NCBI GenBank assembly: GCA_030637025.1
Contig: DAOVVV010000007.1
Coordinates: 52,667 to 72,666, forward strand
Direction: 5' to 3'
Source: Clostridia bacterium
Lineage (GTDB): Bacteria > CBDUZB01 > JAGLHV01
Length of the DNA: 20,000 nucleotides
The position numbers and the translations under genes were made by a program. This document shows positions 1,493 through 19,377 of the stretch, in pieces (within the stretch, counting starts at the first letter, position 1; the number at the start of each line of letters is the position of its first letter). The notes below the pieces were generated by a model. That model made no database searches. It saw only the letters and a program-made list of their open reading frames with translations, and had not been told where the DNA came from.

Positions 1493-2119
1493 ATGTGTCC
1501 CGAAAAGAAAAAAATTAATAAAAAAATTGAAAATTTTAAAGATTTTCACCGGCTCATACCTGAGTTTATAAAAGAAATTAATAAAGATCAACAATTGGCT
1601 ATTAGGGCAGCGGTTAATCCTTTGCTGGCTTTTGAGGAATTAGGATATGTTTTACCGCTCGAAGTTCAAAAAAAAGTGGGAATATTTATTCGTTTTCGTC
1701 CTAAAGATCGCAAGCGTTTGACAGAATTAGAGGCGGAGATTTATAAAGCAGCAGGATGCACTTTTGATATTGATTCTCCCCGGGAAGTGGAAACAGTTTT
1801 GTTTAAAACTTTAAAGATGCGTAAACCCAAGGGAATGGAAAAAATGGTTGCTTTAAATGTAATTAAAAAAGGGATGGCAATAGCAATGAAGCAGAAAAAG
1901 AAAAAAGTAGAAGAAGTCGATCCTTTGCAAGAATTAAAAGAAAAACATGCTATCATTGCTCCTTTATTGTCTTATCGTAAAATCCAGGCAGGCAGCTCTG
2001 GTTTTGCTTCCCGCTCTCTTTATGAAGAACTAAAAGCCGGGAAAAAGAAATTTCCTATAAGTAAAATGCGCGTGCGTTTTCCCGAACAACACGAACACGA
2101 GGAGGTAGAAAATGCCTAA
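1493..2119 (+). CDS. Hypothetical protein with a segment resembling the DNA polymerase A thumb subdomain
   Basis: GGAGG at 1482-1486 favours ATG 1493 over TTG 1487. LEAEIYKAAGCTFDIDSPREVETVLFKTLKM...LQELKEKHAIIAPLLSYRKIQ resembles the PolA thumb. Stop overlaps the next gene. Confidence 0.75.
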   Translation: MCPEKKKINKKIENFKDFHRLIPEFIKEINKDQQLAIRAAVNPLLAFEELGYVLPLEVQKKVGIFIRFRPKDRKRLTELEAEIYKAAGCTFDIDSPREVETVLFKTLKMRKPKGMEKMVALNVIKKGMAIAMKQKKKKVEEVDPLQELKEKHAIIAPLLSYRKIQAGSSGFASRSLYEELKAGKKKFPISKMRVRFPEQHEHEEVENA

Positions 2120-5100
2120 TACCCGTGGTTTTGAAGTAGTAGCGGAAGTAATAGTATCGGTTTTAACGGAAATTCTTAAAGCAGCCTGGGATAACGGAGG
2201 AACTAATGATCCTGGATCTATTCCTCATGAGGTTGTTATAGAAGAAGGGTTAATGTTTGGTACATATCGGATAACCAGTGGTCAGGTTAGTATTCCCCAG
2301 GAAGGTCTTAGTCTGAATATGGCTCCGGCTGATAACGGAGTAACCGTAAGATTAGCTACGGGAATCCAGGTAGATCTGGATCCAACTACCATACCTGTCC
2401 CTTCTTTATCTCAATTTAATATGACGGCGGATATTGACATAACCGCTCCTTTTGGAATTATTCCGGAAACTGAGTTTAATGTAGGGGTTATTTTTGAGGG
2501 GTTGCCCCGGGATAAGGTAGTTGTTGCTCTTACCAGTGGGGATCCTATTGAACCGATTTCAGATACCCTTATTGCCGAGTATATACACAACCTTTATGAA
2601 CAGAACGGAGATACTTTCCCACATACCCTTACCCTGGAAGATCAGAGTTGGGGTGCTTTTACTTTTGATGCCTTTGTTGAATTTTTTGATGATCTTTCCG
2701 ACCCGGCACGGCGAATTACTGTACAGCGTCCCGATTCAAATCATGTGGCCGTATCTATACCTATTCATTTAAGGTTAAATGATATAAATTGTTCTTATAC
2801 TACTGTTCTTTCCCCAATGGGAGTGACCGCTAGAATTGTTCTTACCGCACCTTATCAACAGAGCTCAGACCTGATTACCGCTACCTTGAGCGCAGCAGTG
2901 GTTACCGTAGAGGATTTAGCACCTGCTTCGGGAATTGAAGGAACTAATTATAATTTAAATAAAGCAGGAGCAGCTGCTTTAGGAATAGATCTTGACCAAT
3001 TATTTGAGACGGAAATTACTCAGCGGGGTACGGTGCTGGCACAATCAATGGGAGATATTGAAGTTCAATATCCTACGGTGGCTCAGATAGAACAATTTAT
3101 CGGTGACCATGTTTACCATGAGTTGCTCAATCGGCGTTACATAGGAGCCTGGACCCCGGAAACCCCGGAAGATTCCCCGGTAGAAATCAGAGAAGTCCGT
3201 CCCAAAGCATTGTCCGATGCTTTAGCCATAGGAATTAATCCGGGTACAGGTGCTGATGAAAATCTTTTAATCAATTTTGTTCCCTCTGACCAGTCTTTTG
3301 CTATTGCTCTGGATGCGGATTTTGTCAACCAAACAATTAGAGACATTATTGATACTCCCGAACCCGATGGTTTTGGGGGGGTTCCCAAACATTTTGATAA
3401 TATAGAAGGACATGAAGCGCAACTGGAATCGCTTAATTGGGCACTGCAATCCGGTGTTATTCATTTTTGGGGGGATGTAACTGTTTACGATGTTTTTTGC
3501 AAAGCCGATGCCGAATGCAGTTTTTGGGCAGACATAAAACTTAAATGGAATCCTCCGGATGGCTCCGGTGCTCAGGTTCTGGAACCATATCTTCATGATG
3601 ATGATGTAGATTTACCCTGGTGGGCCTGGCTTATTGCCGTATTGGGTTTTATTTTTGGATTGATTATCGGGATTATTATGATAGTAGTTACTGTGGTAGT
3701 TGAGCGGGTTGCCGAACGGATAGGTGGAGCAGTAATGGAAGACGAAGTGGCTGGTCAATTACAGGTTTTGGGAGCATGGCCTCAGCAATTGCAGGGAATT
3801 GGAAACATTATTTCTACCTTTCAGGAAGCAGTAGGTATTGATTCTGAGGGACTTCTGTTTTCCGGTTCGATATTAGTAATAGCTACTTATGGTCTTACTT
3901 TAACCGATCCGGCTTGTGCCGGCGGGCCTTACTTTTGTTTTGCCGGTGGTCCTTCCATTGATTTTTTTGCCGGTCCCGGCAACCCTAAAATTGATTATCA
4001 CTGGAATTTTTGGGGGGGAATTACTGCCCTGGGACATCATGTAACTCATAAATACAATGATAATGGTTTATATATAGTTCGTTTGACCAGCACGGTCAAC
4101 GAGCCTGGAGGAGCAATTACTCATAACTCTGTTTTGGTTCATGCGGAAAATGTGCCGCCGGTGGTTGATGCCGGCGAGGATAAAGTGATAAATGAAGGAG
4201 AAGAGGTTTTATTCTCCGGTAAATTTACCGATCAGGAATGGCCGGATACTCACGAAGCTATCTGGGATTTTGGAGATGACTCACTTCCCGTAGAAGGAAT
4301 GATTACCCAAACTAATAATCCGCCTCAGGCAGAGGGTGTAGTTACGGCCAGTCATGCCTTTTGTGACCAGGGGGAATATACAGTAATCCTGCGTATGCGC
4401 GATGATAACGGCGGAGTTAGTGAAGATACGCTTAAAGTTACTGTGCTTAATGTTCCACCTACAGTAGATGCGGGAGAAGATATGTTTGCTTATATTTGTA
4501 CGCCGATTACTTTGGTAGGGCGTTTTTTTGATCCCGGTTGGTGTGATCAGCACACCGGTTCCTGGAATTTCGGTGATTGTACACCTACTCATCCTGCTAT
4601 TATTCGGGAGAAAAATGAACCGCCTATGGGTACGGGTATTGTAGTGGCTACCCATACCTATAATCGTTGTGGAATTTATTGGGTAGAATGTGTGGTTATT
4701 GATGACGATGGAGGAGTTGGCAGGGATGTTATTACGGTACGGGTAGTAAATATATTAAACCGCGATTTCGAAGCAGGTTTTCGTAACCGTACGGTAGGAA
4801 CAGTAGCTAATCACTGGGAACCTTATTCAGTTAGTGCCTCTACACATACATTGGGAATGGTAGAAGCTATAGATGTTGGTGCAGCTCTTTTTAGTGCCGA
4901 AGAATTTGTGGTTCACGGTGGACAGCGTTCTCAAAAAATAGAAGGAGTGGGAAAATTTAGTGCCGGTATTTATCAACAGGTGGGAGCGAATTCTAATTGG
5001 GACTATCAGGTATCGGTCTGGTATCATATAGATGAGAAAACAGGAGGAAGGTGCCGTTTGGGAGTAGATCCTTTAGGGGGTACCAATCCTGCTTCATCCG

Positions 5101-5843
5101 ATGTAGAATGGGTTGAGGGAAATCAACAGCGTAATTGGGCACAATTGGTCTGGCGGGTGACAGCAAAAAAACGGGCTATTACTGTTTTTCTTGAAGTAGT
5201 CGGTGAAACACAGAATACAGCTGCTTATTTTGACGATGTTGTTTTAAGTCCTTATCCCTGTCCGTTAAAAGAGCCGGAAACGATAGAACAACCCGAGCCG
5301 GAATTACGGGAAATATGTGTTAATTGGGCGGAGGAGAAAAAAGGTGGGGAAGTGGGTACTGTTTATGAAAAAAACGGTTTTATTTTTAAATCTGCCAATC
5401 AGGAACAATTACGCATTATAATATGGGGTTCGCCGGAGGGTGAGGGTAAGTTAGTTCTTCCTCAAGATGGGATGGATGTTTTATTACCTTTTGTAGCTGA
5501 TGGCGTTATTGCTCATGTCGGATTGTATACCCAGCGGCCGATTACCTTAAAAGCTCTGGATGCAGAAGGTAATACCTTAGAAGAAGTAACTACGCCTGCT
5601 GCTCAGGGGGAAGCTTATACTCTGGAAATAAATACAGCGGGGATTGCATCTCTTTTCTTTTCCGGAGGAGGCGGTGAAGGTTTGTTGCTTAATCTGTGTA
5701 TTTCTGAGGGAACAGGAGAGAAAAAGGGCCCGCTCAAAAAAATTGAAGATGTTAAGAAAGAATTGAGTCGGGTTGCAGAGAAAATAGGTGCTAAACTAGA
5801 AAGAAAAAGGATGAAGATAAAGAAGAAAAATAAAAGAAAATAG
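2112..5843 (+). CDS. Large PKD-domain protein: unknown N-terminal region, hydrophobic helix, 3 PKD-like repeats, CBM-like domain, C-terminal beta domain
   Basis: GAGGAGG RBS. Hydrophobic PWWAWLIAVLGFIFGLIIGIIMIVVTVVV (~3615-3701). PKD signatures WNFWGG/WDFGD/WNFGD, HxY/F..G.Y.V and NVPPxVDAGED at 4149 and 4449. NRDFE...YFDDVVL jelly-roll-like domain ~4749-5260. Confidence 0.85.
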   Translation: MPNTRGFEVVAEVIVSVLTEILKAAWDNGGTNDPGSIPHEVVIEEGLMFGTYRITSGQVSIPQEGLSLNMAPADNGVTVRLATGIQVDLDPTTIPVPSLSQFNMTADIDITAPFGIIPETEFNVGVIFEGLPRDKVVVALTSGDPIEPISDTLIAEYIHNLYEQNGDTFPHTLTLEDQSWGAFTFDAFVEFFDDLSDPARRITVQRPDSNHVAVSIPIHLRLNDINCSYTTVLSPMGVTARIVLTAPYQQSSDLITATLSAAVVTVEDLAPASGIEGTNYNLNKAGAAALGIDLDQLFETEITQRGTVLAQSMGDIEVQYPTVAQIEQFIGDHVYHELLNRRYIGAWTPETPEDSPVEIREVRPKALSDALAIGINPGTGADENLLINFVPSDQSFAIALDADFVNQTIRDIIDTPEPDGFGGVPKHFDNIEGHEAQLESLNWALQSGVIHFWGDVTVYDVFCKADAECSFWADIKLKWNPPDGSGAQVLEPYLHDDDVDLPWWAWLIAVLGFIFGLIIGIIMIVVTVVVERVAERIGGAVMEDEVAGQLQVLGAWPQQLQGIGNIISTFQEAVGIDSEGLLFSGSILVIATYGLTLTDPACAGGPYFCFAGGPSIDFFAGPGNPKIDYHWNFWGGITALGHHVTHKYNDNGLYIVRLTSTVNEPGGAITHNSVLVHAENVPPVVDAGEDKVINEGEEVLFSGKFTDQEWPDTHEAIWDFGDDSLPVEGMITQTNNPPQAEGVVTASHAFCDQGEYTVILRMRDDNGGVSEDTLKVTVLNVPPTVDAGEDMFAYICTPITLVGRFFDPGWCDQHTGSWNFGDCTPTHPAIIREKNEPPMGTGIVVATHTYNRCGIYWVECVVIDDDGGVGRDVITVRVVNILNRDFEAGFRNRTVGTVANHWEPYSVSASTHTLGMVEAIDVGAALFSAEEFVVHGGQRSQKIEGVGKFSAGIYQQVGANSNWDYQVSVWYHIDEKTGGRCRLGVDPLGGTNPASSDVEWVEGNQQRNWAQLVWRVTAKKRAITVFLEVVGETQNTAAYFDDVVLSPYPCPLKEPETIEQPEPELREICVNWAEEKKGGEVGTVYEKNGFIFKSANQEQLRIIIWGSPEGEGKLVLPQDGMDVLLPFVADGVIAHVGLYTQRPITLKALDAEGNTLEEVTTPAAQGEAYTLEINTAGIASLFFSGGGGEGLLLNLCISEGTGEKKGPLKKIEDVKKELSRVAEKIGAKLERKRMKIKKKNKRK

Positions 5844-5882
5844 ATTTAAAGAAATAAAATTTATCGTTGGAAAGGAGAAATT

Positions 5883-6620
5883 ATGCCTGAAGAAAGAATA
5901 GTTAAAATTGTTGCCTGGCCCAAAGAGCCGGCAAAACTGGAGCATCGTTTTAATAGCGAAAAACCCTGTCCGGTTTCTATTTCTTTTGAAAAGACTCCGG
6001 CTAATGTAATCGTTCGTTCTAACCCCAAAGAGCCATTCAATGTAGATATGGCCATGAATGTTATAGCAAAGGAAACAATTCCGGTATGTATTAAATTATG
6101 TGAACCAATCTGTGTAAAAAGCAAATATGCTATTGCTATTGATATTTTTGATCGTCCGGTAGCCAATATTGCTTTGCAGGGAGAGACCAGAATATTTAAT
6201 TGTCGTGAAGGGGATAATAATGTTAGACCGGTTTGTGTTGATTTTAATAAGTTAAAAGAGGGAATGGAATTTACGGAAGCATTTACCCATCAAGAATTTA
6301 AGTTTACTCCGCTGGGAGACAAATTACGGACGGTAAATTTCGGAGAGCCGGCCGGCCGGGTAAAATTAGCTTTTCCGCCGGAAGGTATCCGTATAGATCT
6401 TCCGCAGGAAGCAAATCAGGTAAAACTTACAGTTAATAATTATGCCGGTCAGACCCTTGATTTTTTTGTTTACACCGGAAGCACGTTGGCTAACCAATTT
6501 TCCCAGGACATTGTAAATGAAGTAAAAGAAATTTTTATTTCCCGCTCCGGAGTTACGGCAATAGAGATTAAAGGGGGAAGAAATGAATCAGCAGTAGTGG
6601 AGGTTTGTTTTTCTTTATAA
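5883..6620 (+). CDS. Hypothetical two-domain Cys-rich protein
   Basis: AAGGAG RBS. The N-terminal 109 aa are paralogous to 6715-7059; the C-terminal domain resembles the C-terminal domain of 2112-5843. Confidence 0.85.
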   Translation: MPEERIVKIVAWPKEPAKLEHRFNSEKPCPVSISFEKTPANVIVRSNPKEPFNVDMAMNVIAKETIPVCIKLCEPICVKSKYAIAIDIFDRPVANIALQGETRIFNCREGDNNVRPVCVDFNKLKEGMEFTEAFTHQEFKFTPLGDKLRTVNFGEPAGRVKLAFPPEGIRIDLPQEANQVKLTVNNYAGQTLDFFVYTGSTLANQFSQDIVNEVKEIFISRSGVTAIEIKGGRNESAVVEVCFSL

Positions 6621-7041
6621 ACTTTATGGAATAATATTGAGTATGGGATAAAAGATTGATTTTTTTTTAAAAATAAATTAGAATAAAACAGTTATTATTA
6701 AAAGAGGAAAATATATGGCTGAAGAAAGAATAGTTAAAATTACAGCCTGGCCCAAAGAGCCGGTAAAACTGGAACATTATTTTAATAGTGAAAAACCCTG
6801 TCCGGTTTCTATTTCTTTTGAAAAAAACCCGGCCAATGTAATCGTTCACTCTAATCCCAAAGAACCATTTAATGTAGATATGGCTATGAATCTTATAGCA
6901 AAGGAAACTATTCCTGTCTGTATTAAATTATGTGAACCGATTTGTGTTAAAAGTAAGTATGCAATTACCGTTGATATTTTTGATCGTCCGGTAGCAACCA
7001 TTACCCTCAAGGGGGAAACCAGATTATATAATTGTCAGGAG
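5883..7041 (+). repeat. Direct duplication of a ~327-bp coding module (5883-6209 and 6715-7041)
   Basis: Long identical DNA stretches, e.g. GAAAAACCCTGTCCGGTTTCTATTTCTTTTGAAAA and GATATTTTTGATCGTCCGGTAGC, in both copies. Confidence 0.95.
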
Positions 7042-7059
7042 GAGAGAGATGTTGAATAA
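6715..7059 (+). CDS. Hypothetical Cys-rich protein, paralogue of the N-terminal domain of 5883-6620
   Basis: GAGG RBS; 94/109 aa identical to the preceding gene by hand alignment. Confidence 0.85.
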   Translation: MAEERIVKITAWPKEPVKLEHYFNSEKPCPVSISFEKNPANVIVHSNPKEPFNVDMAMNLIAKETIPVCIKLCEPICVKSKYAITVDIFDRPVATITLKGETRLYNCQEERDVE

Positions 7060-7837
7060 AAGTAAAAAAATGCCGAAAAGTAAATTAAATGAGTCCGGAG
7101 GAGATTCAACAGCAAAGTTTCAAACAAGCGGTTTGGGTTCTAAAAAAGGAAACAAAGAGTGGAAAGGAACAGGTGCCGGAGAAAAAAAGAAAATAAGCAA
7201 GGATGTAATTAAAGGATTGGCCAATGCTACTTCCCGTGTAGTTCAGCAGGCTGCTTCCATTTTGGAAGAAGAAGTCGCTGCCGGTATTGTTGCGGCAAAA
7301 CAGGTAGAAGACCGTTTGATTAATGTAAAGGACCTTCGTTCCGGTAAACCGGATGAAGTAATACACCGCTTTCGGCGTGACGCACACGAGGTAATGGATA
7401 TTTTTATTGATTTAGCTCATGCTGCCAGTAAATATGTCGGGGGGCTTGCTCAACGGGTGGTTACTATCCGGGGCTCAGAAAGAAAAGAAAAATCAGAATA
7501 TACGGCTTCCGGGCAATTACCTACGCTTAAAACCAATAAAGCAATGAAACCGGGTGAAGTGGCTAAAATCCCGATGGATTTAGAAAATAACAGTGATAAA
7601 ATAATGGATAAATTTAGTTTTCACAGTACCGATTTAGTAGATGCTTCCGGGAAAAGGATTGCAGCTGAAAGGATAACCTTTACTCCTTCCGCACTTTCTC
7701 TGGCTCCATATAAAACCCAAAAGGTATTGGTAGCAGTTAATATTCCTGCCAAAACTTCCGCAGGTATTTATTCCGGTTTAATCCGGGCGACAAAGATGGA
7801 TCAGTTACAGGCGATATTGGTAATTCAAGTCGATTGA
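7049..7837 (+). CDS. Hypothetical protein: Lys/Gly-rich N-terminus, helical core, C-terminal Ig-like beta domain
   Basis: GGAGGAG RBS; start overlaps the previous stop. The C-terminal pattern (KPGE...L.N...ITFTP..LSLAP...V.V.V.IP.....G.YSG) is typical of Ig-like domains. Confidence 0.75.
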   Translation: MLNKSKKMPKSKLNESGGDSTAKFQTSGLGSKKGNKEWKGTGAGEKKKISKDVIKGLANATSRVVQQAASILEEEVAAGIVAAKQVEDRLINVKDLRSGKPDEVIHRFRRDAHEVMDIFIDLAHAASKYVGGLAQRVVTIRGSERKEKSEYTASGQLPTLKTNKAMKPGEVAKIPMDLENNSDKIMDKFSFHSTDLVDASGKRIAAERITFTPSALSLAPYKTQKVLVAVNIPAKTSAGIYSGLIRATKMDQLQAILVIQVD

Positions 7838-7878
7838 TTTTGGTGTAATTAAGGGAGAATGATTAAGGAGTTTTATTT

Positions 7879-8919
7879 ATGCCCGGGGTTAATCGTTTTG
7901 AATTAGTGGAAACAGCTTTAAAATATTATAAAGATATTACTATGGAAACTCTTTTGACTTTTTTACCGTCAAAAGAGCCCAGGAAGTACCTTTATGATTT
8001 AATTCCATCTTATCCTATGCGTCCGGGAAAAGGTTTACGCCCGGGGTTATGTATGGCTACCTGTGAAGCTTTTGGAGGAAATGTCCGCAATGCTCTTAGG
8101 TCGGCTGTAGCTATTGAATTGTTTCATAATGCTTTTTTAATTCATGATGATGTGGAAGATGGAAGTGAATACCGGCGGGGCGAGAAGACCTTACATGCTA
8201 AATACGGGATGGAAATTGCCGTGAATGCCGGTGATGCAATGAATGTTCTCAGCATTCGTCCTTTAATGGAAAATCTTACCTTTCTCGGTCCGGAGTTAAC
8301 CTGGCAGATTTTTACCGAAATTGAACATATGGTGCGGCAATCAGTTGAAGGACAGGCGATGGAGTTGGGTTGGGTACACGATAATATTTGTGATTTAACC
8401 GAAGAGGATTATTTGCGTACAACCCTTAAGAAGACCTGCTGGTATACCAGTATTCATCCCTGTAGAATAGGTGCTTTGATTGCTAAAGGGGGAGAAATAA
8501 ATTTAGATTCTTTTAATCATTTTGGTTTTTATATGGGAGCAGCTTTTCAGATTCAGGATGATGTTCTTAATCTTGTAGGTCAGCGTAAAAAATACGGCAA
8601 GGAAATCGGAGGGGATATCTGGGAAGGAAAGCGAACCGTAATGCTTATTCATTTGCTGAATAATTGCACTAAAAGAGAAAAAGAAAAAATCACAATGTTT
8701 TTGTCCCTGCCCCGTAAGCAGCGGTTACCTAAAGAAGTTAAGTGGGTTTATTCTTTGATGACCGAATATGGTAGTATCGAGTTTGCCCGCAAAAATGCCC
8801 GCCAACTGGCTGGAGCGGCTTTACGAGAATTTTTCGTAGCCTATGGAAGTTTACCTGACAGCCGGGCTAAACAATTTATTTATGATATTGTGTTATATAT
8901 GGTGGAGAGGGATCTTTAA
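7879..8919 (+). CDS. Polyprenyl synthetase family trans-prenyltransferase (GGPP synthase-like)
   Basis: GKGLRP, FARM LIHDDVEDGSEYRRG, AVNAGD, GQAME, KKT, second motif FQIQDDVLN, GKEIGGDIWEGKRT; AAGGAG RBS. Confidence 0.93.
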   Translation: MPGVNRFELVETALKYYKDITMETLLTFLPSKEPRKYLYDLIPSYPMRPGKGLRPGLCMATCEAFGGNVRNALRSAVAIELFHNAFLIHDDVEDGSEYRRGEKTLHAKYGMEIAVNAGDAMNVLSIRPLMENLTFLGPELTWQIFTEIEHMVRQSVEGQAMELGWVHDNICDLTEEDYLRTTLKKTCWYTSIHPCRIGALIAKGGEINLDSFNHFGFYMGAAFQIQDDVLNLVGQRKKYGKEIGGDIWEGKRTVMLIHLLNNCTKREKEKITMFLSLPRKQRLPKEVKWVYSLMTEYGSIEFARKNARQLAGAALREFFVAYGSLPDSRAKQFIYDIVLYMVERDL

Positions 8920-8925
8920 ATTTTA

Positions 8926-9753
8926 TTATCTTTTCTGCTGCATCATCTGTTGCATCATTTCCTGCATATTAGGCATATTGGGCATAGAACTTCCTTTTGT
9001 TGTTACCTTATCCGGATCAAACAAATCATTAGATAATTCCTGGTTTAGTTTTAAAGATTGCACTACTAAAGTAGACATAAGTTGCTTATCATAATATACA
9101 TTGGTTTTATAAGGCATTTCCCATATACTTTTTATTTTCTTAAAATCAGAGTTTATTATGGATAATACTCTTTCTTTTTTTTCCTGTCCTTGTGCTTTAA
9201 TTAACAGTAGATTCTTTTTTTCTATCCATATTTTGGTGAAAGAAAAGGAATCATTAGGTTTAAACTCAATTACATAACAGTTATGTTTGCCGATTTTTTC
9301 ACTGCCGGTAATTTTTGCTTTTGTTGGTAATTGGTCGTACCAGTTTGTACCTATTTGATAATTTTTTTGTTCTTTCGGGGGAATTTTTTTCTTGCCCATA
9401 AAAGGTGAAATTACCCACTCGTTCCGGCCATCAAAAATAAAAATTGTTTTCATTTGTTTCATTTTCCCCGTAGTTTCTGCGTCAGAGGGTGTAGGTATGC
9501 TGGTTTCTATACGGTACTTTTTGCCTTTTCTATATACTTTGTTTTTTGAGATTACCTGGTTTTTGCCCTGCTGGATTTGCATTTCCTGAACAATAGTTAT
9601 ATCTTTTACTTCTTTTTTAAAGGAAGCATCTTTTTCCTTTAATTTTTTATGAATGCTTGACCATTCTGCAGTAAAACCCTGATTGATTCCTAAGGTTAGA
9701 GTTAAAAATGCCGTTAGCAATACAATTTTTAACCCATTGAATTTTTTTGTCAT
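8926..9753 (-). CDS. Exported LolA-like (outer-membrane lipoprotein-sorting family) protein
   Basis: Sec signal peptide; G.EKIG...CYVIE..P, KIWIEK and LSNDLFDP motifs match the LolA-like fold; Met/Gln-rich tail. Confidence 0.7.
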   Translation of the reverse strand: MTKKFNGLKIVLLTAFLTLTLGINQGFTAEWSSIHKKLKEKDASFKKEVKDITIVQEMQIQQGKNQVISKNKVYRKGKKYRIETSIPTPSDAETTGKMKQMKTIFIFDGRNEWVISPFMGKKKIPPKEQKNYQIGTNWYDQLPTKAKITGSEKIGKHNCYVIEFKPNDSFSFTKIWIEKKNLLLIKAQGQEKKERVLSIINSDFKKIKSIWEMPYKTNVYYDKQLMSTLVVQSLKLNQELSNDLFDPDKVTTKGSSMPNMPNMQEMMQQMMQQKR

Positions 9754-13622: not shown

Positions 13623-13676
13623 AAGAAAAATGTATTTTTATAAGCGTTGAAATGGATAAGGATTATAGGAGGTTTT

Positions 13677-13934
13677 GTGGTAAAAGACAAATATATTACT
13701 ATTCCCCAGTTAGCTAAAATTCTGGGTATGAGTAGAATTGCTGTATATAAGAAAGTTAAAAAAGGTCAGATTAAAGCAGTGAAAATAGGAAGAAGTTATG
13801 TTATTTCCCAAAAATATATCACCAATATTTTGGGTAAAGAATTAAACGAAAAAGATAAAAAAGAAATTGATGAGGCAGTAAAAAAAACAGTGAAGGAATA
13901 CGGAGAACTGCTTAAACTTTTAGGTAAGGAATGA
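13677..13934 (+). CDS. Excisionase-like HTH DNA-binding protein, putative antitoxin
   Basis: YITIPQLAKILGMSRIAVYKKVKKGQIKAVKIGRSYVI is an HTH_17 pattern; C-terminal YGELLKLLGKE. AGGAGG favours GTG 13677 over TTG 13647. Overlaps the doc-like gene (ATGA). Confidence 0.8.
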   Translation: MVKDKYITIPQLAKILGMSRIAVYKKVKKGQIKAVKIGRSYVISQKYITNILGKELNEKDKKEIDEAVKKTVKEYGELLKLLGKE

Positions 13935-14359
13935 TGCTTAAAATTACTATTACTGTGAAAGAAGTAGAATATATCGCTTTTAGAATGGCAAAAGAAAACC
14001 TATCTTTTAACGAGCCGATTCCTGCTTTTTCTACCCGTTTTCCAAGTATTTTGGAAAGCTGTTTAGTTACTCCTTTTCAAAGTTTCTCAGGAAAGTATTT
14101 TTATCCGACTTTTATTGCTAAAGCAAGTATTCTTTTTTATCTTATGATTAAAAATCATCCTTTTCAAAATGGGAACAAAAGAATTGCTATGACCACTTTA
14201 TTATTTTTTTTCCATAAAAATAAAAAATGGATAAAGGTAAATATTCAAGAATTCTATAATTTTACGATGTGGGTTACGCAAAGTCCTCGTATAGCCAAAG
14301 AAGAGACAATAAACGCAACAGAAAAGTTTCTAAAAAAGTATATAATAAATCTTGAATAA
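13931..14359 (+). CDS. Fic/Doc family (death-on-curing-like) toxin
   Basis: HPFQNGNKR Fic/Doc motif; LESCLVTPFQSF...YPT...KA pattern. Confidence 0.88.
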   Translation: MMLKITITVKEVEYIAFRMAKENLSFNEPIPAFSTRFPSILESCLVTPFQSFSGKYFYPTFIAKASILFYLMIKNHPFQNGNKRIAMTTLLFFFHKNKKWIKVNIQEFYNFTMWVTQSPRIAKEETINATEKFLKKYIINLE

Positions 14360-14845: not shown

Positions 14846-17800
14846 CTATTTGTTAGGCCACAAAGGGCAATCTTTATTAATACATTCTTGATTTTTTTTA
14901 TATTGAGAGCATACTAAACCTTTATTGGCGGGCAAATAAACCGGTGAATATTTTTTAGAAAGCTCAGAAACAGCTTTCAAGGCAATCCAGCAATCACGCT
15001 GGCAACACCTTGGAGCATTGTATTCTCCTATTTTCCTCAGAACTTCAGAAGTTATTTGTTGAACGATCTGGCGCTCTTTGCCTTTGTAAGGATTGGATTT
15101 TAATATTACAGAATATCCTATACCGGCTCCGACAGCGGCTCCACATACACCCATAAAAGCACAGGCTCCTCCGGCTACGGTCCTTCCCCTTTCAATTCCC
15201 TCTATAATATCTTCGTTTGAAATATCCCCACCTCTATTTTTATAAACTGATAAAATAACACCGGGAACCAATGAGTGATGCTCCGGACCGTTTAACGGAA
15301 CACTATTGTGTCTCCTTATCTTTTTTAACATCTCTACCATGTCATCATATTTTGATTCCAGGCAGATGTTTTTTATAACTTCAATCGCATCCTGCGAATG
15401 GCACCTATCACAAACGAAATGGTCATTTACACAGACGGCATTAGCATTAAAGGATTTATTACAGTAATGGCAGATTTCGGTATGTTCTTTATCAAAATAT
15501 TCAAGCTTAGCACCGCATACTAAACAACCGCTTTTGTATTTTTTCTCATCTGACTTATTGCCGGACTCTTTTTTTGCTTCAGGAACTATAAAACATGAAC
15601 AGCTCATTTCTTGCTTAACATTGGTCGGGTTACCCTTTTCGTCCAAAACAAAAAACGACTCATTAAGCTCGATGTTAGATGGAATATCTACTACAGCCTT
15701 CCTCCCCTGACGAAGAGTTTGCCCTTCGCATAAAGAAACAGAATGTAACGGCCCCCTATAAATTATCTCTCGCGTGACACTTTTTTTTGGTTTATGAGTA
15801 AAATATGTTACGGCGTAAAAATTATATTCCTTAATCTGCCTGTACAAAAATCTTTTCTTTATATATAAACTTTCAAAACCAATATCTTCTATCATAGAAA
15901 ACAAATCATTTTCTTTCATAGCCCCGCCGATACATTCACCTCGAAGCTTTTCATTATATTTTATTTCGAGTGGAACCTCATCGTCGCATACGATATCTGA
16001 TATGCAAATCCTTCCTCCGGGTTTTAAAATCCTCAATATTTCACTTAATGTTTTCCGCTTGTCAGGAGAAAGATTTATAACACAATTTGATATTACAACA
16101 TCTGCAGAGCTTGATTCTAAAGGAATATTTTCTAGAAAACCCTTTCGGAATTCTGTATTCTTATAACCAAGATTTTGTGATACTCTTTCCAGAGATTTAT
16201 CAGCAATCTTTAGCATCGCATCAGCCATATCTATTCCATATACATGCCCCTGGGGACCCACTATGCGGGAAGCAATAAAACACTCTGTTCCGGTTCCTGA
16301 ACCCAGGTCAACTAACACCTCTTCTTCTTTAAGACCGCAATCTTTCACCGGACTGCCGCATCCATAACTGCGCACTTTGGATTCTTGGGGTATATGCGAT
16401 ATATCATGTTCATCGTATTGAACCGGATTGATTATATCTTCATTAACATCTCGAGCCGCATTGGAATAAAAAGAATTTACGGAAGAATATCCATCTTTTC
16501 CCGGCAGGGACAGAACACAGTTAGAATGAGTAAAGCCTACTGATGCACTGTCTTCATTGCACTCATAAAGACGTTCTCCCATTTTGCAGACCATACCAGG
16601 AATATCTCTTTTGATATAGTTTTGGGATTCTTTTGCCAATAGATACAAAGCACAAAAATTGTATAATTCTAAATATGGATCTGCTCCCACAAAAGTTTTT
16701 GATGCAACATAGCTATGGTCAATATCTCCGCCACCGGAGAAATACTTTAATGGGTGATTTCTAATTTTGTCACTTTCAATCAAAGAAGCTCCTCTAATTT
16801 TTTCGAAAACACTGCTTTTTTTCCACACATTTTTTAATCCTTCTTCAATATTTCCTGCGATTAATCCATTTTCGCCAATCAGCGCAGGAGAAGGATAGAT
16901 ATCGCCCTCGGGGCCTATCGCTATGCTTTCCCATGCGGCATTGCTTAAATCAAAACGGGTTCCTGGTAAACAAAATAGTTGACTTTTAAGTATTTCAAAA
17001 TTATCAATCGTAATTCCCAAAGTGTTTGCCTTCTCATAAGCCTTGACCAGGTGTTTGAATATTTCTTCCGGTTTGACGAAAAGAGTTGAAACACCTTTGC
17101 CTTTTTTGAAAAACCAGAGATAGTGAATATTTTTTATATTAAAGTCTGAAGCTATTTCAATCATGCTACTCATTTCGCCTACATTTTTTTTATTTACTGA
17201 CATGGCAAGACTGACCGGAAAATTAAACTTCTGAAGATAATGAAGTGATTTAAGTAATTCATCGAACGTTCCCTTTCCCCGAATAGTTTCATGGTTTTCT
17301 TTAAGTCCGTCTATACTGATCTGAAAATGAACGCGGTCTGTATGTGTGCTCCTTAACCATTCATCAAATGACTTTATATTCTTGGCGTTGGTAAGTACAA
17401 CAATATGAGTATTATCCTTCTTTAATATTTCGTCACATACTTTTGTGAATTTTGGATAAACAAACGGCTCTCCTCCTGTAAAATAGAAAATCCTGCATCC
17501 CAATTGATAGGCCTCATTGCTTGCCTTAATAACATCGCCGTATGCCAGTGAAGGTTGTAATTTATTATCGGAAGAAAACATGCAATGAGAACACGCCATA
17601 TTGCATTGATTTGTGATATGGAACCAGCATTCTTTGAGAGTTTTCAACTCTCTATAATGGATTCGTCCTTTATACGGTGGGGTGTAATTGTTGTTTATTC
17701 GAAACAGAAAGTTTTCAATTTGCATGTACGCCTTATTGAAGTCACAGCTATACTTTCGCGCATATTTACTTACAGCACTTGAAATATCGTTATTTTCTTT

Positions 17801-17920
17801 AAGTAAACCCAACACATAGTCTGCGTTATTTGTGGGCACGAACCAATCCGGCTTGTTTCCATTAATATATATTGGGATTTTTTTATATTCAAACCGCTTA
17901 TAACAAACAAGTTTCTCCAT
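14846..17920 (-). CDS. Fusion: radical SAM + ArsM-like SAM methyltransferase + Cys-rich/DUF5714-like domain
   Basis: CNMACSHC, FTGGEP and QISIDG (radical SAM); YGCGSP, DLGSGTG, DVVISNCVINLSPDK and ECIGGA (ArsM-like); CLVC..CHYC..CVNDHFVCDRCH, GPEHH, GGACAFMGVCGAA and PRCCQR. GGAG at 17930-17927 favours ATG 17920; the track start 17980 lies inside a repeat remnant. Confidence 0.88.
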   Translation of the reverse strand: MEKLVCYKRFEYKKIPIYINGNKPDWFVPTNNADYVLGLLKENNDISSAVSKYARKYSCDFNKAYMQIENFLFRINNNYTPPYKGRIHYRELKTLKECWFHITNQCNMACSHCMFSSDNKLQPSLAYGDVIKASNEAYQLGCRIFYFTGGEPFVYPKFTKVCDEILKKDNTHIVVLTNAKNIKSFDEWLRSTHTDRVHFQISIDGLKENHETIRGKGTFDELLKSLHYLQKFNFPVSLAMSVNKKNVGEMSSMIEIASDFNIKNIHYLWFFKKGKGVSTLFVKPEEIFKHLVKAYEKANTLGITIDNFEILKSQLFCLPGTRFDLSNAAWESIAIGPEGDIYPSPALIGENGLIAGNIEEGLKNVWKKSSVFEKIRGASLIESDKIRNHPLKYFSGGGDIDHSYVASKTFVGADPYLELYNFCALYLLAKESQNYIKRDIPGMVCKMGERLYECNEDSASVGFTHSNCVLSLPGKDGYSSVNSFYSNAARDVNEDIINPVQYDEHDISHIPQESKVRSYGCGSPVKDCGLKEEEVLVDLGSGTGTECFIASRIVGPQGHVYGIDMADAMLKIADKSLERVSQNLGYKNTEFRKGFLENIPLESSSADVVISNCVINLSPDKRKTLSEILRILKPGGRICISDIVCDDEVPLEIKYNEKLRGECIGGAMKENDLFSMIEDIGFESLYIKKRFLYRQIKEYNFYAVTYFTHKPKKSVTREIIYRGPLHSVSLCEGQTLRQGRKAVVDIPSNIELNESFFVLDEKGNPTNVKQEMSCSCFIVPEAKKESGNKSDEKKYKSGCLVCGAKLEYFDKEHTEICHYCNKSFNANAVCVNDHFVCDRCHSQDAIEVIKNICLESKYDDMVEMLKKIRRHNSVPLNGPEHHSLVPGVILSVYKNRGGDISNEDIIEGIERGRTVAGGACAFMGVCGAAVGAGIGYSVILKSNPYKGKERQIVQQITSEVLRKIGEYNAPRCCQRDCWIALKAVSELSKKYSPVYLPANKGLVCSQYKKNQECINKDCPLWPNK

Positions 17921-17970
17921 TTCACTCTCCAGTCGCAGAGGGTCATAACCTCCATCCACAAAAATAGTTG

Positions 17971-18061
17971 GGGGGAACATTGCGTCGTTTTTTAACTAAT
18001 TATTCTGGTTTGTTTTTAGTTACTTCTTCCCTTCAACGGTATAATTTGCTTATTACACTTG
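17971..18061 (-). mobile_element. Degenerate copy of the Y1-transposase 3' end seen at 19458-19559
   Basis: Colinear with 19458-19559: GGGGA-C.TTGCGTC..AACTAATTATT..TCTGGTT.GTTTTTAGTTA..TTCCCT..CGGTAT.ATTTGCTTATT.CAC. Confidence 0.75.
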
Positions 18062-18755: not shown

Positions 18756-18765
18756 ATTGTGTATT

Positions 18766-19377
18766 ATGAAAAATACTAAAAAACAAAAACTATTTGAGAT
18801 AGTCTCTCTCCAGCAGGGATATTTTACTGCGAAACAAGCTATCAATGCAGGATTCTCTTATAGGATGCATTCACATTATAGGCAAAGAGGGGAATGGCTT
18901 GAAATTGACAGAGGCATTTTTCGACTGGCACAATTTCCTAATTCACCAGACGAGGATTATGTTAGATGGTCTCTGTGGAGCAGAGATAGAAATGGTCAAC
19001 CCCAGGCGGTTATATCTCATGAGTCAGCACTTAGTATTCATGAGCTTAGCGATGTTATGCCATCAAAAATCCATTTTACTGTTCCGCTTGGGTTTAGAAA
19101 AAAAATACCTAAAGGATGTTTTTCCCACAAAGGAAAAATTTCAAATGATGAAAAAGAACAGAGAGAAGGTTTTTTTGTTACAACTCCTCTTCGCACAATA
19201 ATTGACTCTGCCGAATCAAATCTCAGCATTGATTATCTTGAACAGGCTATACAACAAGGATGCGATAGAGGAATGTTTCAGATCCTTGACATTGTGAGCA
19301 CTGAAATGTCGCAAAAGGCAAAAGAAAAAATAATGATAGTTTTTAAAAAGATAAAAATTGAAAGAGAGAAAAACTAA
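18766..19377 (+). CDS. abiEi: Type IV toxin-antitoxin AbiEi-family antitoxin
   Basis: QQGYFTAKQA..AG, RGIFRL, AVISHESALSIHELSD, IHFTVP and VTTPLRTIID motifs; ATG 18766 preferred over TTG 18757. Confidence 0.88.
   Translation: MKNTKKQKLFEIVSLQQGYFTAKQAINAGFSYRMHSHYRQRGEWLEIDRGIFRLAQFPNSPDEDYVRWSLWSRDRNGQPQAVISHESALSIHELSDVMPSKIHFTVPLGFRKKIPKGCFSHKGKISNDEKEQREGFFVTTPLRTIIDSAESNLSIDYLEQAIQQGCDRGMFQILDIVSTEMSQKAKEKIMIVFKKIKIEREKN

Follow-up and report, generated by a model that had tools for sequence, protein, structure and literature searches.

What does a bacterium gain by placing an isoprenoid synthase behind a solitary piece of DNA polymerase I, a large PKD protein and a pair of cysteine-rich paralogues, and what, if anything, do these products handle together? 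The question is raised by six genes, g1 to g6, that lie side by side at positions 1493-8919 (+) of a 20,000-nucleotide stretch from a Clostridia bacterium (GenBank assembly GCA_030637025.1, contig DAOVVV010000007.1, positions 52,667 to 72,666 of the forward strand), the whole of which is referred to here as the window. An initial annotation, made from the letters alone, had read the row as a candidate undescribed system and had suggested that its products might form a multi-protein assembly with a dedicated supply of prenyl diphosphate or a prenyl modification. The firm result of the present analysis is that a private short-chain isoprenyl diphosphate synthase, usually in the company of a reductase, is linked to a membrane-anchored protein with several TULIP (lipid-binding) units and to three families without known relatives. 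A plausible, if still tentative, reading of this arrangement is that the cluster makes an isoprenoid lipid which the TULIP part of g2 takes up and moves, with g1 acting as an adaptor and with g3/g4 and g5 serving as partners of the synthase.

A conserved set built from two modules

A scan of one genome per species, covering 185,579 species, returned 54 loci, each of them defined by a match to g3/g4, in which the other genes were counted by tblastn with the proteins of the window; the 32 loci in which at least 7 kb is available to either side are treated as complete. The cysteine-rich (Cys-rich) gene, g3/g4, is by construction present in every locus (54/54, and 32/32 of the complete ones). It is accompanied by g5 in 48 of the 54 and by g6 in 46, both being found in all 32 complete loci. 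The N-terminus of g2 occurs in 42 loci, 26 of them among the complete ones, and g1 in 38, of which 24 are complete by tblastn (26 by blastp labels). Clustering of the neighbouring genes brought out a seventh family beside g6 in related loci, whose members have 480-590 residues and belong to the geranylgeranyl-reductase family. This reductase is encoded in 39 of the 54 loci and in 27 of the 32 complete ones, and the four members tested all score 197-219 bits on TIGR02032 (cut-off 158.8) while falling under the equivalog cut-offs for MenJ, for BchP/ChlP and for the archaeal lipid reductase. Finally, IspH-like open reading frames (ORFs) flank the set in 4 loci; one copy (L045) reaches 297 bits on TIGR00216 (cut-off 187.85), and that of L037 was recognised by eye. 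The earlier suggestion of a dedicated prenyl-diphosphate supply is strengthened by the reductase in most related loci and by the ispH copy in some.

How widely is such a set spread? Homologues co-occur in distant taxa, the 54 loci representing at least seven named phyla. The carriers include Calditrichota (Caldithrix and Calditrichaceae), Chloroflexota (Anaerolineaceae, Chloroflexia and Aggregatilineales), Bacteroidota (Marinilabilia, Flavobacteriaceae including Dokdonia, Cryomorphaceae, Lewinella, Chitinophaga and Mucilaginibacter), Pseudomonadota (Massilia and one gammaproteobacterial genome), Actinomycetota (Desertimonas and Ilumatobacteraceae), Acidobacteriota (Terriglobia and Bryobacterales) and Gemmatimonadota (Gemmatimonadaceae), together with metagenome-assembled genomes of Balneolaceae and Chlorobiaceae. 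The window's own small lineage contributes three other genomes of the same genus, and the other 57 'relatives' of its genome have only the domain in common with it. Compared with the proteins of the window, homologues from beyond that genus are 50-70% identical in the case of g6, 33-57% in that of the g2 N-terminus, 31-57% for g3, 29-54% for g5 and 23-47% for g1. Could the association be an accident, in which an ordinary isoprenoid gene happens to follow unrelated surface-protein genes? The co-occurrence counts already refute this explanation, which is hardly credible when the same families are adjacent in locus after locus and phylum after phylum while their surroundings change.

The order of the genes is g1-g2-g3/4-g5-g6 in most lineages and g3/4-g5-g6-reductase-g1-g2 in Flavobacteriia and Chitinophaga. 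The set is self-contained, because its flanks consist of unrelated housekeeping or regulatory genes that differ between loci. In Massilia, one Bryobacterales, one Chlorobiaceae and one Calditrichaceae only g3/4-g5-g6 are found together, with the reductase present in all of these loci except that of Chlorobiaceae. Since g3/4-g5-g6 thus occur without g1-g2, the set can be divided into a module A, comprising the Cys-rich protein, g5 and the synthase with or without reductase and IspH, and a module B, comprising g1 and g2.

A few loci deserve separate mention. In five Chitinophaga loci (L056, L058, L059, L061 and L062) the cluster lies beside genes for an extracytoplasmic function (ECF) sigma factor, a FecR-type anti-sigma factor and SusC/SusD-like proteins, neighbours that may point to control by an envelope signal. 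A TonB-dependent receptor is encoded nearby in four Massilia loci (L037, L039, L040 and L043), with two small genes without a Pfam match in between. Within Chloroflexia, the g2 and g6 homologues of L024 are in short ORF pieces, which suggests a decayed copy, and g1 and g2 of L019 are split over several ORFs; the broken genes of both could reflect real decay or assembly errors.

The prenyl diphosphate synthase

The last gene of the row, g6 (7879-8919, +), encodes a protein that scores 199.4 bits on Pfam polyprenyl_synt (PF00348; cut-off 27). An alignment of 37 sequences shows as invariant the two Asp-rich motifs, D90-D91-x-x-D94 and D227-D228-x-x-N231, and the pair R99-R100, and has a Phe at position -4 before the first Asp-rich motif; the DDxxN form of the second motif resembles that of eukaryotic-type geranylgeranyl diphosphate (GGPP) synthases. 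The top NCBIfam models are IdsA (193.3 bits, cut-off 468), family 2 encapsulin cargo (176.7, cut-off 450) and GGPP_syn (173.2, cut-off 500), and the farnesyl diphosphate (FPP) synthase model gives 121.3 bits (cut-off 275). Indeed, g6 falls under every NCBIfam equivalog cut-off, among them those for IdsA, GGPP synthase, FPP synthase, encapsulin cargo 4 and octaprenyl synthase. By its motifs and scores g6 is best described as a short-chain-type trans-isoprenyl diphosphate synthase that forms an orthologous group of its own, and its product is probably C20, or C15-C20.

Is g6 simply the housekeeping synthase of this organism, as the initial annotation had allowed that it might be? The genome, which is 97.8% complete, contains two PF00348 genes, and the second of these is a canonical ispA on another contig (C65:23310-24047), which scores 335.7 bits on the FPP synthase model NF045485 (cut-off 275) and lies in the row xseA-ispA-dxs-tlyA. 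The two proteins are 30% identical, and g6 is neither the only synthase of the genome nor its housekeeping one. Within the window, Pfam scans of the ORFs found no further isoprenoid gene, in line with what had been noted before, and the PKD, PolA-thumb and prenyltransferase domains that had been named for g2, g1 and g6, respectively, were all recovered by Pfam.

The TULIP protein g2

The largest product is that of g2 (2112-5843, +; 1243 residues), whose residues 1-500 (2112-3611) form a predicted multi-TULIP lipid-binding module of the BPI/CETP/P47 kind. Its first residues are the invariant MPNTxGFEV, and a signal peptide is lacking. The AlphaFold2 (AF2) model of residues 1-500, built with 17 sequences, has a mean predicted local distance difference test score (pLDDT) of 80.6 and consists of repeated units of a helix and a curved sheet. 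Foldseek against the PDB matched it to OrfX3 (8bgm_D, E 7e-9) as well as to LBP, BPI and CETP, with E values from 7e-9 to 4e-7 for these four and up to 1e-6 in the search. VIA-align, which does not depend on Foldseek, gave Z 16.2 with P47 (6ekt_A, root-mean-square deviation (rmsd) 6.5, 329 aligned), 15.3 with OrfX3, 12.6 with BPI and 12.0 with CETP. The single-domain matches include isoprenoid carriers, namely juvenile-hormone-binding protein (Z 9.0), Takeout (Z 6.8) and a beta-carotene-binding protein (Z 6.2). Identity to the structural matches, BPI and CETP included, is 7-12%. As modelled, the region has a long helix lying in a curved antiparallel sheet and head-to-tail repeats of this unit, the features that define the TULIP superfamily, to which it would thus belong. 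None of the described bacterial TULIP families (P47/OrfX, YceB/DUF1439, DUF4403, DUF2140 and DUF2993) matched the sequence in Pfam at E up to 0.1, at which level only PKD_4, PKD and MAM are reported; because Pfam gives just PKD and a sub-threshold MAM, the TULIP part of g2 represents a new family at the sequence level.

The likeness to P47 and OrfX3, which are the best structural matches of the g2 N-terminus, raises the thought that the cluster could be a toxin accessory, with products that are released without signal peptides and act on foreign membranes. The set is rare and patchy, a strong g5 match being found in just 4 of 36 Massilia genomes, and none of its products has a signal peptide. 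Against this, no toxin, neurotoxin-like or otherwise, and no protease or pore-forming gene was found in the window or in or beside any of the 54 mapped loci; PADLOC, PHROGs and viral contigs gave no matches; and the fold match spans the whole TULIP superfamily at the low identity given above. As g2 also carries a conserved membrane segment, such a role is very improbable.

That segment, residues 501-530 (3612-3701), is the sole strongly hydrophobic one of the protein. It is uncharged, with a Gly-rich centre and acidic flanks on both sides; in 20 of 21 homologues the uncharged stretch has 28-34 residues, and the AF2 model places helices at 503-509 and 513-537. It is predicted to be either a membrane-spanning helix or a hairpin anchor, and as a hairpin the uncharged segment of 30-32 residues could leave the whole protein cytoplasmic.

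Beyond the segment g2 is made of beta-sandwich domains. Pfam finds three PKD (immunoglobulin-like, Ig-like) repeats, both PKD_4 (PF18911, 108.4 bits) and PKD (57.5 bits) matching in three stretches, of which the top-scoring covers residues 680-778 (4149-4445). A jelly-roll region follows at residues 967-1051 (5010-5264), in which a MAM match (E 1.2e-4, 22.4 bits) lies under its cut-off of 26.4 and serves as a lead only. The C-terminal jelly roll (5295-5705), recognised by its homology to the C-terminal domain of g3 (27% identity to g3 residues 111-244, E 4.8e-8), precedes a Lys/Arg-rich tail, and such a basic tail is found in many g2 homologues. The Cys pair 1069/1196 is kept in 17 of 21 homologues, and all seven conserved Cys of g2 are C-terminal to the hydrophobic segment, with none in residues 1-500. 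The missing signal peptide and this distribution of Cys hint at a topology in which the TULIP part is inside and the PKD and jelly-roll domains are outside.

Does g2 then belong to a surface apparatus, as a type II protein whose PKD and carbohydrate-binding-module-like (CBM-like) domains face outward to bind a glycan or a cell, with g3 to g5 exported to join it and the isoprenoid serving as anchor or carrier? The PKD repeats and the two CBM-like jelly rolls are what such an apparatus might contain. Conserved Cys pairs are confined to the C-terminal half of g2 and to the g3 jelly roll, as would be expected for extracytoplasmic disulfides, and the SusC/SusD and ECF/FecR neighbours in Chitinophaga and the TonB-dependent receptor near the Massilia cluster fit the same picture. 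However, g3, g4 and g5 lack a signal peptide in every lineage aligned, and the carriers have very different envelopes (Actinomycetota, Chloroflexota and Bacteroidota). Moreover, polyprenyl-phosphate carriers are made by cis-prenyltransferases and not by short-chain synthases such as g6. The bacterial TULIP families that have been described are predicted to be extracytoplasmic (PMC6791001), and a cytoplasmic TULIP on a surface adhesin is without known precedent. With these points taken together a surface apparatus seems unlikely.

The polymerase-thumb homologue g1

The gene directly ahead of g2 is g1 (1493-2119, +), which encodes 208 residues and has an alternative TTG start at 1487. Residues 75-173 match positions 12-92 of the 381 positions of Pfam DNA_pol_A with 37.4 bits (cut-off 34.3), the same model is matched by 12 of 17 members of the g1 family, and the family profile aligns with residues 464-541 of Taq Pol I (E 6e-9), that is, with the thumb helices H-I. 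The tip of the thumb is swapped for a variable basic stretch. Palm, fingers and exonuclease have left no trace in the 208 residues, only profile positions 12-92 being covered. The candidate assignment of g1 as a family A DNA polymerase was rejected for the absence of palm and fingers with their catalytic motifs. By these alignments g1 is a genuine stand-alone homologue of the thumb subdomain of DNA polymerase I. It resembles family A polymerases in the match to helices H-I and differs from them in that it is always encoded directly ahead of the TULIP membrane protein. For protein evolution, g1 is of interest as a polymerase thumb that survives as a separate small protein.

Co-folding of g1 with residues 1-560 of g2 gave a score of 0.52, the best of 3 controls being 0.00. 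The mark is reached by 58 of 80 solved complexes and by 2 of 110 mismatched pairs, and values of at most 0.60 account for 7 of the 80 and for both of the mismatches that pass. The runs share at least 86% of contacts, with a partner pLDDT of at least 72. The co-folding thus lends weak support to a contact between the two proteins.

The Cys-rich proteins g3 and g4

Genes g3 (5883-6620, +) and g4 (6715-7059, +; 114 residues) have in common a Cys-rich module. In g3 it covers residues 1-113 (5883-6221) and its invariants are W12-P13, C69-x3-C73-E-P-I-C77, S80, Y82, G100 and C107. Gene g4 encodes the module alone and is 85-86% identical to g3 residues 1-110. Pairs of a long and a short module protein occur in three lineages, including Calditrichaceae and Chloroflexota, with within-locus identities of 83-86%, 69% and 54-57%. 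The module has no match in Pfam, NCBIfam or the sequences of the PDB, to which it adds a family without a relative, and it is matched, with or without the jelly roll, by just 83 clusters in a set of 1.84 billion representative proteins. The g3 family comprises 59 clusters among 5.8 billion proteins, and an atlas look-up of g4 (best score 0.80) was uninformative. Three long proteins with InlB B-repeats or Calx-beta repeats (P0124, P0135 and P0136) were set aside as relatives of the module, as they match only a short beta-strand stretch.

The second part of g3, residues 115-245 (6225-6620), is a CBM-like beta-jelly-roll with an invariant Cys pair, C118/C242. Its model has a pLDDT above 90, and the structure search places it next to 8x8h_A (Foldseek E 1.8e-6; VIA-align Z 13.8, rmsd 2.5, 130 aligned). 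The sharing of modules among g2, g3 and g4 that the initial annotation had pointed out is borne out, g4 resembling the N-terminal module of g3, and the C-terminal domain of g3 resembling the C-terminus of g2. A further similarity, the AWP motif of g2 (A555-W556-P557, 3774-3782) and g3 (A11-W12-P13, 5913-5921), is unsupported as homology because hhalign aligns it with a probability of only 1.4% (E 0.038). AWP(K/Q) is nearly invariant just past the membrane segment of g2, and W-P is invariant at the N-terminus of g3/g4; a shared recognition site is possible.

A sister family without the Cys residues is represented by P0101, P0125, P0130, P0132 and P0138 and by locus L071 (403-1467), a single 1.5-kb contig from a metagenome scan. 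In it Cys is replaced by Val, Ile or Ala, the N-terminal WP..LEH.F motif is kept, and short PV.VGF strands are present in variable number. On L071 a g5-like gene follows. The family was not found in 401 sampled Actinomycetota genomes.

What might four invariant Cys be for in a protein without a signal peptide? One answer would be that the module is a redox helper, in which they bind a metal or an iron-sulfur centre that feeds electrons to the reductase or IspH, with module A as a unit for reducing isoprenoids and module B as an unrelated passenger. An archaeal geranylgeranyl reductase requires a dedicated ferredoxin encoded beside it, and here the flavin reductase adjoins the module in 27 of the 32 complete loci, with IspH-like ORFs in 4 loci (one copy verified). 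Yet the genome studied has two copies of the module, no reductase and, in the window, no extra ispH, and the Cys-less relatives, with their aliphatic replacements, still have the remainder of the module and a g5 partner. The module was also tried as a ferredoxin or zinc finger and rejected, no such family having matched in Pfam, NCBIfam or the PDB sequences. A redox role is accordingly quite improbable.

The helical and Ig-like protein g5

In the product of g5 (7049-7837, +) a basic, disordered N-terminal region is followed by two strongly conserved helices (ILEEE..G and FRxDAHE..D) and, at the C-terminus, by an Ig-like beta-sandwich; the alignment has 19 invariant columns. The Ig-like part resembles the N-terminal domain of GH123 (Pfam 19.4 bits, under the cut-off; PDB 5fqg, E 1.9e-4). 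Relatives in public records are named only 'COG1470 family' or 'hypothetical', an atlas look-up returned 30 unnamed clusters at a score of 0.94, most often from Actinomycetota, and the g5 profile matched in 4 of 400 other sampled Actinomycetota genomes, to the Ig-like part only. Gene g5 thus stands for a helix-bearing family that has been known so far just by its Ig-like domain.

A fusion ties g5 to the Cys-rich proteins. In a Chlorobiaceae locus the gene immediately ahead of g6 (L067, 9767-10237, +) encodes a protein of 156 residues in which the g5 helices are fused to the Cys core of g4, and P0111 is an independent protein of 152 residues with the same build but without genomic context. Simple deletion does not account for the fusion, because its order, g5 then g4, is the reverse of the gene order elsewhere. 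Judged from its sequence, the fusion and the synthase of L067 make up a minimal two-gene form of module A, and g3/g4 and g5 may well bind each other.

These features bring to mind a further explanation, that of lipidation, in which the g6 isoprenoid would be joined covalently to g3/g4, at an invariant Cys or at the Trp of the WP motif, in the manner of ComQ/ComX, with g5 shielding the lipid as RhoGDI does and g2 inserting or extracting the modified protein. ComQ is a member of the polyprenyl-synthase family, and the architecture of RhoGDI is a disordered arm, helices and an Ig-like domain, to which the plan of g5 corresponds. The Cys-rich protein, g5 and g6 are the invariant core of all 32 complete loci, W12, P13 and the four Cys are invariant, and the set contains no lipid-consuming enzyme. 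Lipidation is nevertheless doubtful on several grounds. Thus, g6 retains all the motifs of chain elongation, including the residues that bind isopentenyl diphosphate. The Cys-less sister family keeps its g5 partner, which argues against Cys as the acceptor. The tail after the conserved C-terminal Cys (C242) has 3 residues in this g3, as the Cys at -4 of a CaaX box would, but 2 to about 30 in 19 relatives, which is unlike a CaaX box. No protein prenyltransferase was found, the genome search with PF00432 being uninformative as its controls gave no signal. Protein lipidation is on balance improbable.

A proposed lipid-handling system

How, then, might the parts work together? Three elements have been added to what the initial annotation had described, namely the TULIP fold of g2, its membrane segment and the reductase gene of the wider family. 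In the lipid-handling reading introduced above, the two modules, A (g3/g4, g5 and g6) and B (g1 and g2), would act as one conserved, self-contained set. The synthase g6 would make the cluster's own C15-C20 isoprenoid, saturated where the reductase is present, with g3/g4 and g5 as its non-enzymatic partners. The g2 protein would be held in the membrane by its single hydrophobic segment, with the N-terminal 500 residues as a chain of TULIP barrels, to which g1 would be the adaptor, and with the C-terminal 700 residues as PKD and jelly-roll domains. The isoprenoid would enter the TULIP cavity at the cytoplasmic face of the membrane; from there it would be passed on to, or retained at, a place in the membrane or envelope that is set by the Ig-like and jelly-roll domains. 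We infer these steps, and with them the chain length, the TULIP ligand, the protein contacts, the topology and the cellular purpose, from the gene content, its conservation, the folds, the catalytic motifs and the separateness of g6 from ispA.

Several findings weigh against the lipid-handling reading. The chief weakness is that no enzyme of the set uses a prenyl diphosphate, neither a UbiA-type, squalene/phytoene-synthase-type or PcrB-type transferase nor a terpene synthase being found in the cluster. The rest of the genome offers one UbiA-family gene, no SQS_PSY, and no PcrB match above cut-off. The reductase is absent here, the best TIGR02032 match in the genome having 31 bits and tblastn with 4 queries finding nothing. 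In four of the five searched genomes with module A but no g2 nearby no g2 match was found, the fifth, a complete Massilia genome, having a g2 homologue 2.2 Mb away; module A can therefore stand alone. The lysine and arginine residues that flank the g2 segment, summed over 21 sequences, number 16 before it and 35 after it, which weakly favours the opposite orientation. Furthermore, g3, g4 and g5 have extracellular-type folds and conserved Cys pairs, yet no signal peptide. The Cys-rich module failed to fold (pLDDT below 50), and the co-folding pass of g1 and g2 is in the weak class, which is wrong more often than right unless the guess was likely beforehand. Finally, the g6 tree sorts by phylum, and recent transfer between phyla therefore does not explain the patchy spread of the set.

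A more far-reaching version, which is speculative and on the whole unlikely, would make the cluster a bacterial counterpart of the eukaryotic tethered TULIP machines, with a C20 lipid of its own, a thumb adaptor and a Cys-rich organiser, feeding a membrane domain, an envelope layer or a lipid body. SMP-domain tethers such as the extended synaptotagmins likewise combine TULIP units with a hydrophobic anchor and with domains of the beta-sandwich type, as g2 does. Were this version true, g2 would be the first TULIP protein whose gene is linked to the making of what it binds, and g1 the first case of a Pol I thumb put to use outside a polymerase. The share of probability that is taken neither by lipid handling nor by the rival explanations belongs to functions outside those listed here.

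What does the cluster offer to neighbouring fields? To the study of lipid transfer it brings, in g2, a TULIP protein for which the other genes of the operon may give away the ligand. Beyond quinones, carotenoids, hopanoids and carrier lipids, little is charted of the isoprenoid lipids of bacteria, and the cluster offers a handle on one, with a dedicated synthase, in many cases a reductase, and a probable carrier protein. Cultured carriers are available in Marinilabilia salmonicolor JCM 21150, several Chitinophaga and Massilia species, Desertimonas flava and a Lewinella strain.

Relation to known systems

The earlier view that the cluster corresponds to no named system is sustained by comparison with Pfam, NCBIfam, PHROGs and PADLOC and by full-text literature searches, in which supplementary files were outside the coverage. 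PADLOC returned 0 matches for 7 proteins and PHROGs 0 for 6, and no relative was found on viral contigs.

The nearest likenesses are partial. With the TULIP lipid-transfer proteins (BPI/LBP/CETP, JHBP/Takeout and P47/OrfX), several of which bind isoprenoids, the cluster has in common the predicted fold of g2 residues 1-500; g2 differs in that it matches none of their sequence families and in that its TULIP part precedes a membrane segment and lacks a signal peptide. In the parts consulted, a survey of bacterial TULIP proteins lists P47/OrfX, YceB, DUF4403, DUF2140 and DUF2993, assigns YceB and the newly described families to extracytoplasmic locations from the signal or lipoprotein sequences that they carry, and mentions no link to prenyl compounds (PMC6791001). 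A TULIP fusion of a different kind is described in the sections consulted of the lipocone paper (PMC12419801). Full-text searches that paired TULIP with polyprenyl or geranylgeranyl found no TULIP gene tied to an isoprenoid synthase, and 'TULIP domain' and 'PKD' did not occur together among the matches listed.

On the side of the synthase, g6 is like archaeal IdsA, GGPP synthase and family 2 encapsulin cargo in its Pfam family, in both Asp-rich motifs and in its length, but its relatives make up a separate group with 50-70% identity from phylum to phylum, and it occurs in fixed association with non-enzymatic partners. Unlike the encapsulin cargo it has no shell gene beside it, none being found in Pfam scans of the window ORFs; PF04454 was not found in the genome either, a model that may not cover family 2 shells. 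The combination of synthase and TIGR02032 reductase in most related loci recalls the pairs of GGPP synthase and geranylgeranyl reductase in the archaeal lipid and chlorophyll/menaquinone pathways, but the cluster holds no geranylgeranylglyceryl phosphate (GGGP) or digeranylgeranylglyceryl phosphate (DGGGP) synthase, no chlorophyll synthase and no MenA. Similarly, ComQ-ComX also sets a polyprenyl-synthase-family gene beside small proteins with an invariant Trp; in contrast to that system, the cluster has no ComP/ComA pair, the partners have 110-250 residues conserved over their full length, and g6 resembles a true elongating synthase.

Evolution of the cluster

At 40.8%, the G+C content of the cluster exceeds the 33.5% of the genome and that of every one of 1866 genome windows of equal size. 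A tree of g6, made by a quick method, comprised 36 of the 46 g6-bearing loci and the g6 of the window, with IspA from the same genome as the outgroup; 10 loci whose ORFs fell outside 330-365 residues or were miscalled at high G+C were left out, among them those of Massilia and most of those of Gemmatimonadota. The tree needs 9 changes of phylum label, the minimum being 8 and the mean of shuffled labels 14.7, and none of 200 shuffles gave so low a number. Recent horizontal transfer between phyla, a candidate explanation of the G+C excess and of the patchiness in Massilia, is not claimed, as the g6 tree clusters by phylum. The data fit either an old acquisition with much loss or old transfers, and are at odds with a recent exchange across phyla.

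The gene row and its surroundings

In the ORF listing the six genes are co-directional, as had been described, with an 8-nt overlap between g1 and g2, gaps of 39 bp and 94 bp on either side of g3, an 11-nt overlap between g4 and g5 and a gap of 41 bp before g6. The good ribosome-binding sites noted earlier are seen again, with a Shine-Dalgarno-like purine run 5-9 nt 5' of all six starts (GGGAGG, GAGGAGG, AAGGAG, AGAGGA, AGGAGGAG and AAGGAG, from g1 to g6), as is the AT-rich leader of about 400 bp, a spacer of 390 bp before g1 (1097-1486, +) with 24.6% G+C. Within this leader lies one sigma-70-like site (1382-1411) that matches at 10 of 12 positions and has a TG extension. In a scan of the window, promoter-like and terminator-like sites were not commoner than in shuffled sequence, and operon status consequently rests on spacing and conservation; the spacing suggests that the six genes are co-transcribed. 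The row ends, as had been said, at a convergent gene (8926-9753, -), which has LolA-like Pfam matches and begins 6 nt past the g6 stop. None of the six products has an obvious Sec signal peptide, the N-termini being judged by eye without a predictor, in agreement with the initial annotation. An Rfam scan of the window returned 0 families. The stretch is contained in 13 sequencing runs, all of DNA from cold-seep or marine-sediment metagenomes, with no RNA run listed among them.

Just upstream of the leader (310-1096, +) lie genes for a stand-alone response-regulator receiver and, after it, for a type IV pilin-like protein of 122 residues with an N-terminal methylation motif, and the equivalent place in a sister genome (L014) holds a pilin-motif protein with a 3-keto-disaccharide-hydrolase-like domain. 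Further along the window, a small HTH_17 gene overlaps a Fic/DOC-family gene (13647-14359, +), an arrangement that resembles a toxin-antitoxin pair, and an AbiEi-antitoxin-like regulator is encoded at 18757-19377 (+). Between them, at 14846-17980 (-), lies a gene for a fusion of 1044 residues in which a radical S-adenosylmethionine (SAM) domain (77 bits), a class I SAM methyltransferase (108 bits) and DUF5714 (203 bits) are brought together in an unusual combination. Elsewhere in the genome (L069, C39:14000-24000; ORFs 2282-3487 and 4463-5308), the sole UbiA-family gene lies two genes downstream of one for another radical SAM protein, whose best models, TrsS (134 bits) and the archaeal tetraether lipid synthase Tes (106 bits), are both under cut-off. 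A sugar dehydratase/epimerase gene is found two genes further on, and the region may be a second unusual lipid locus.

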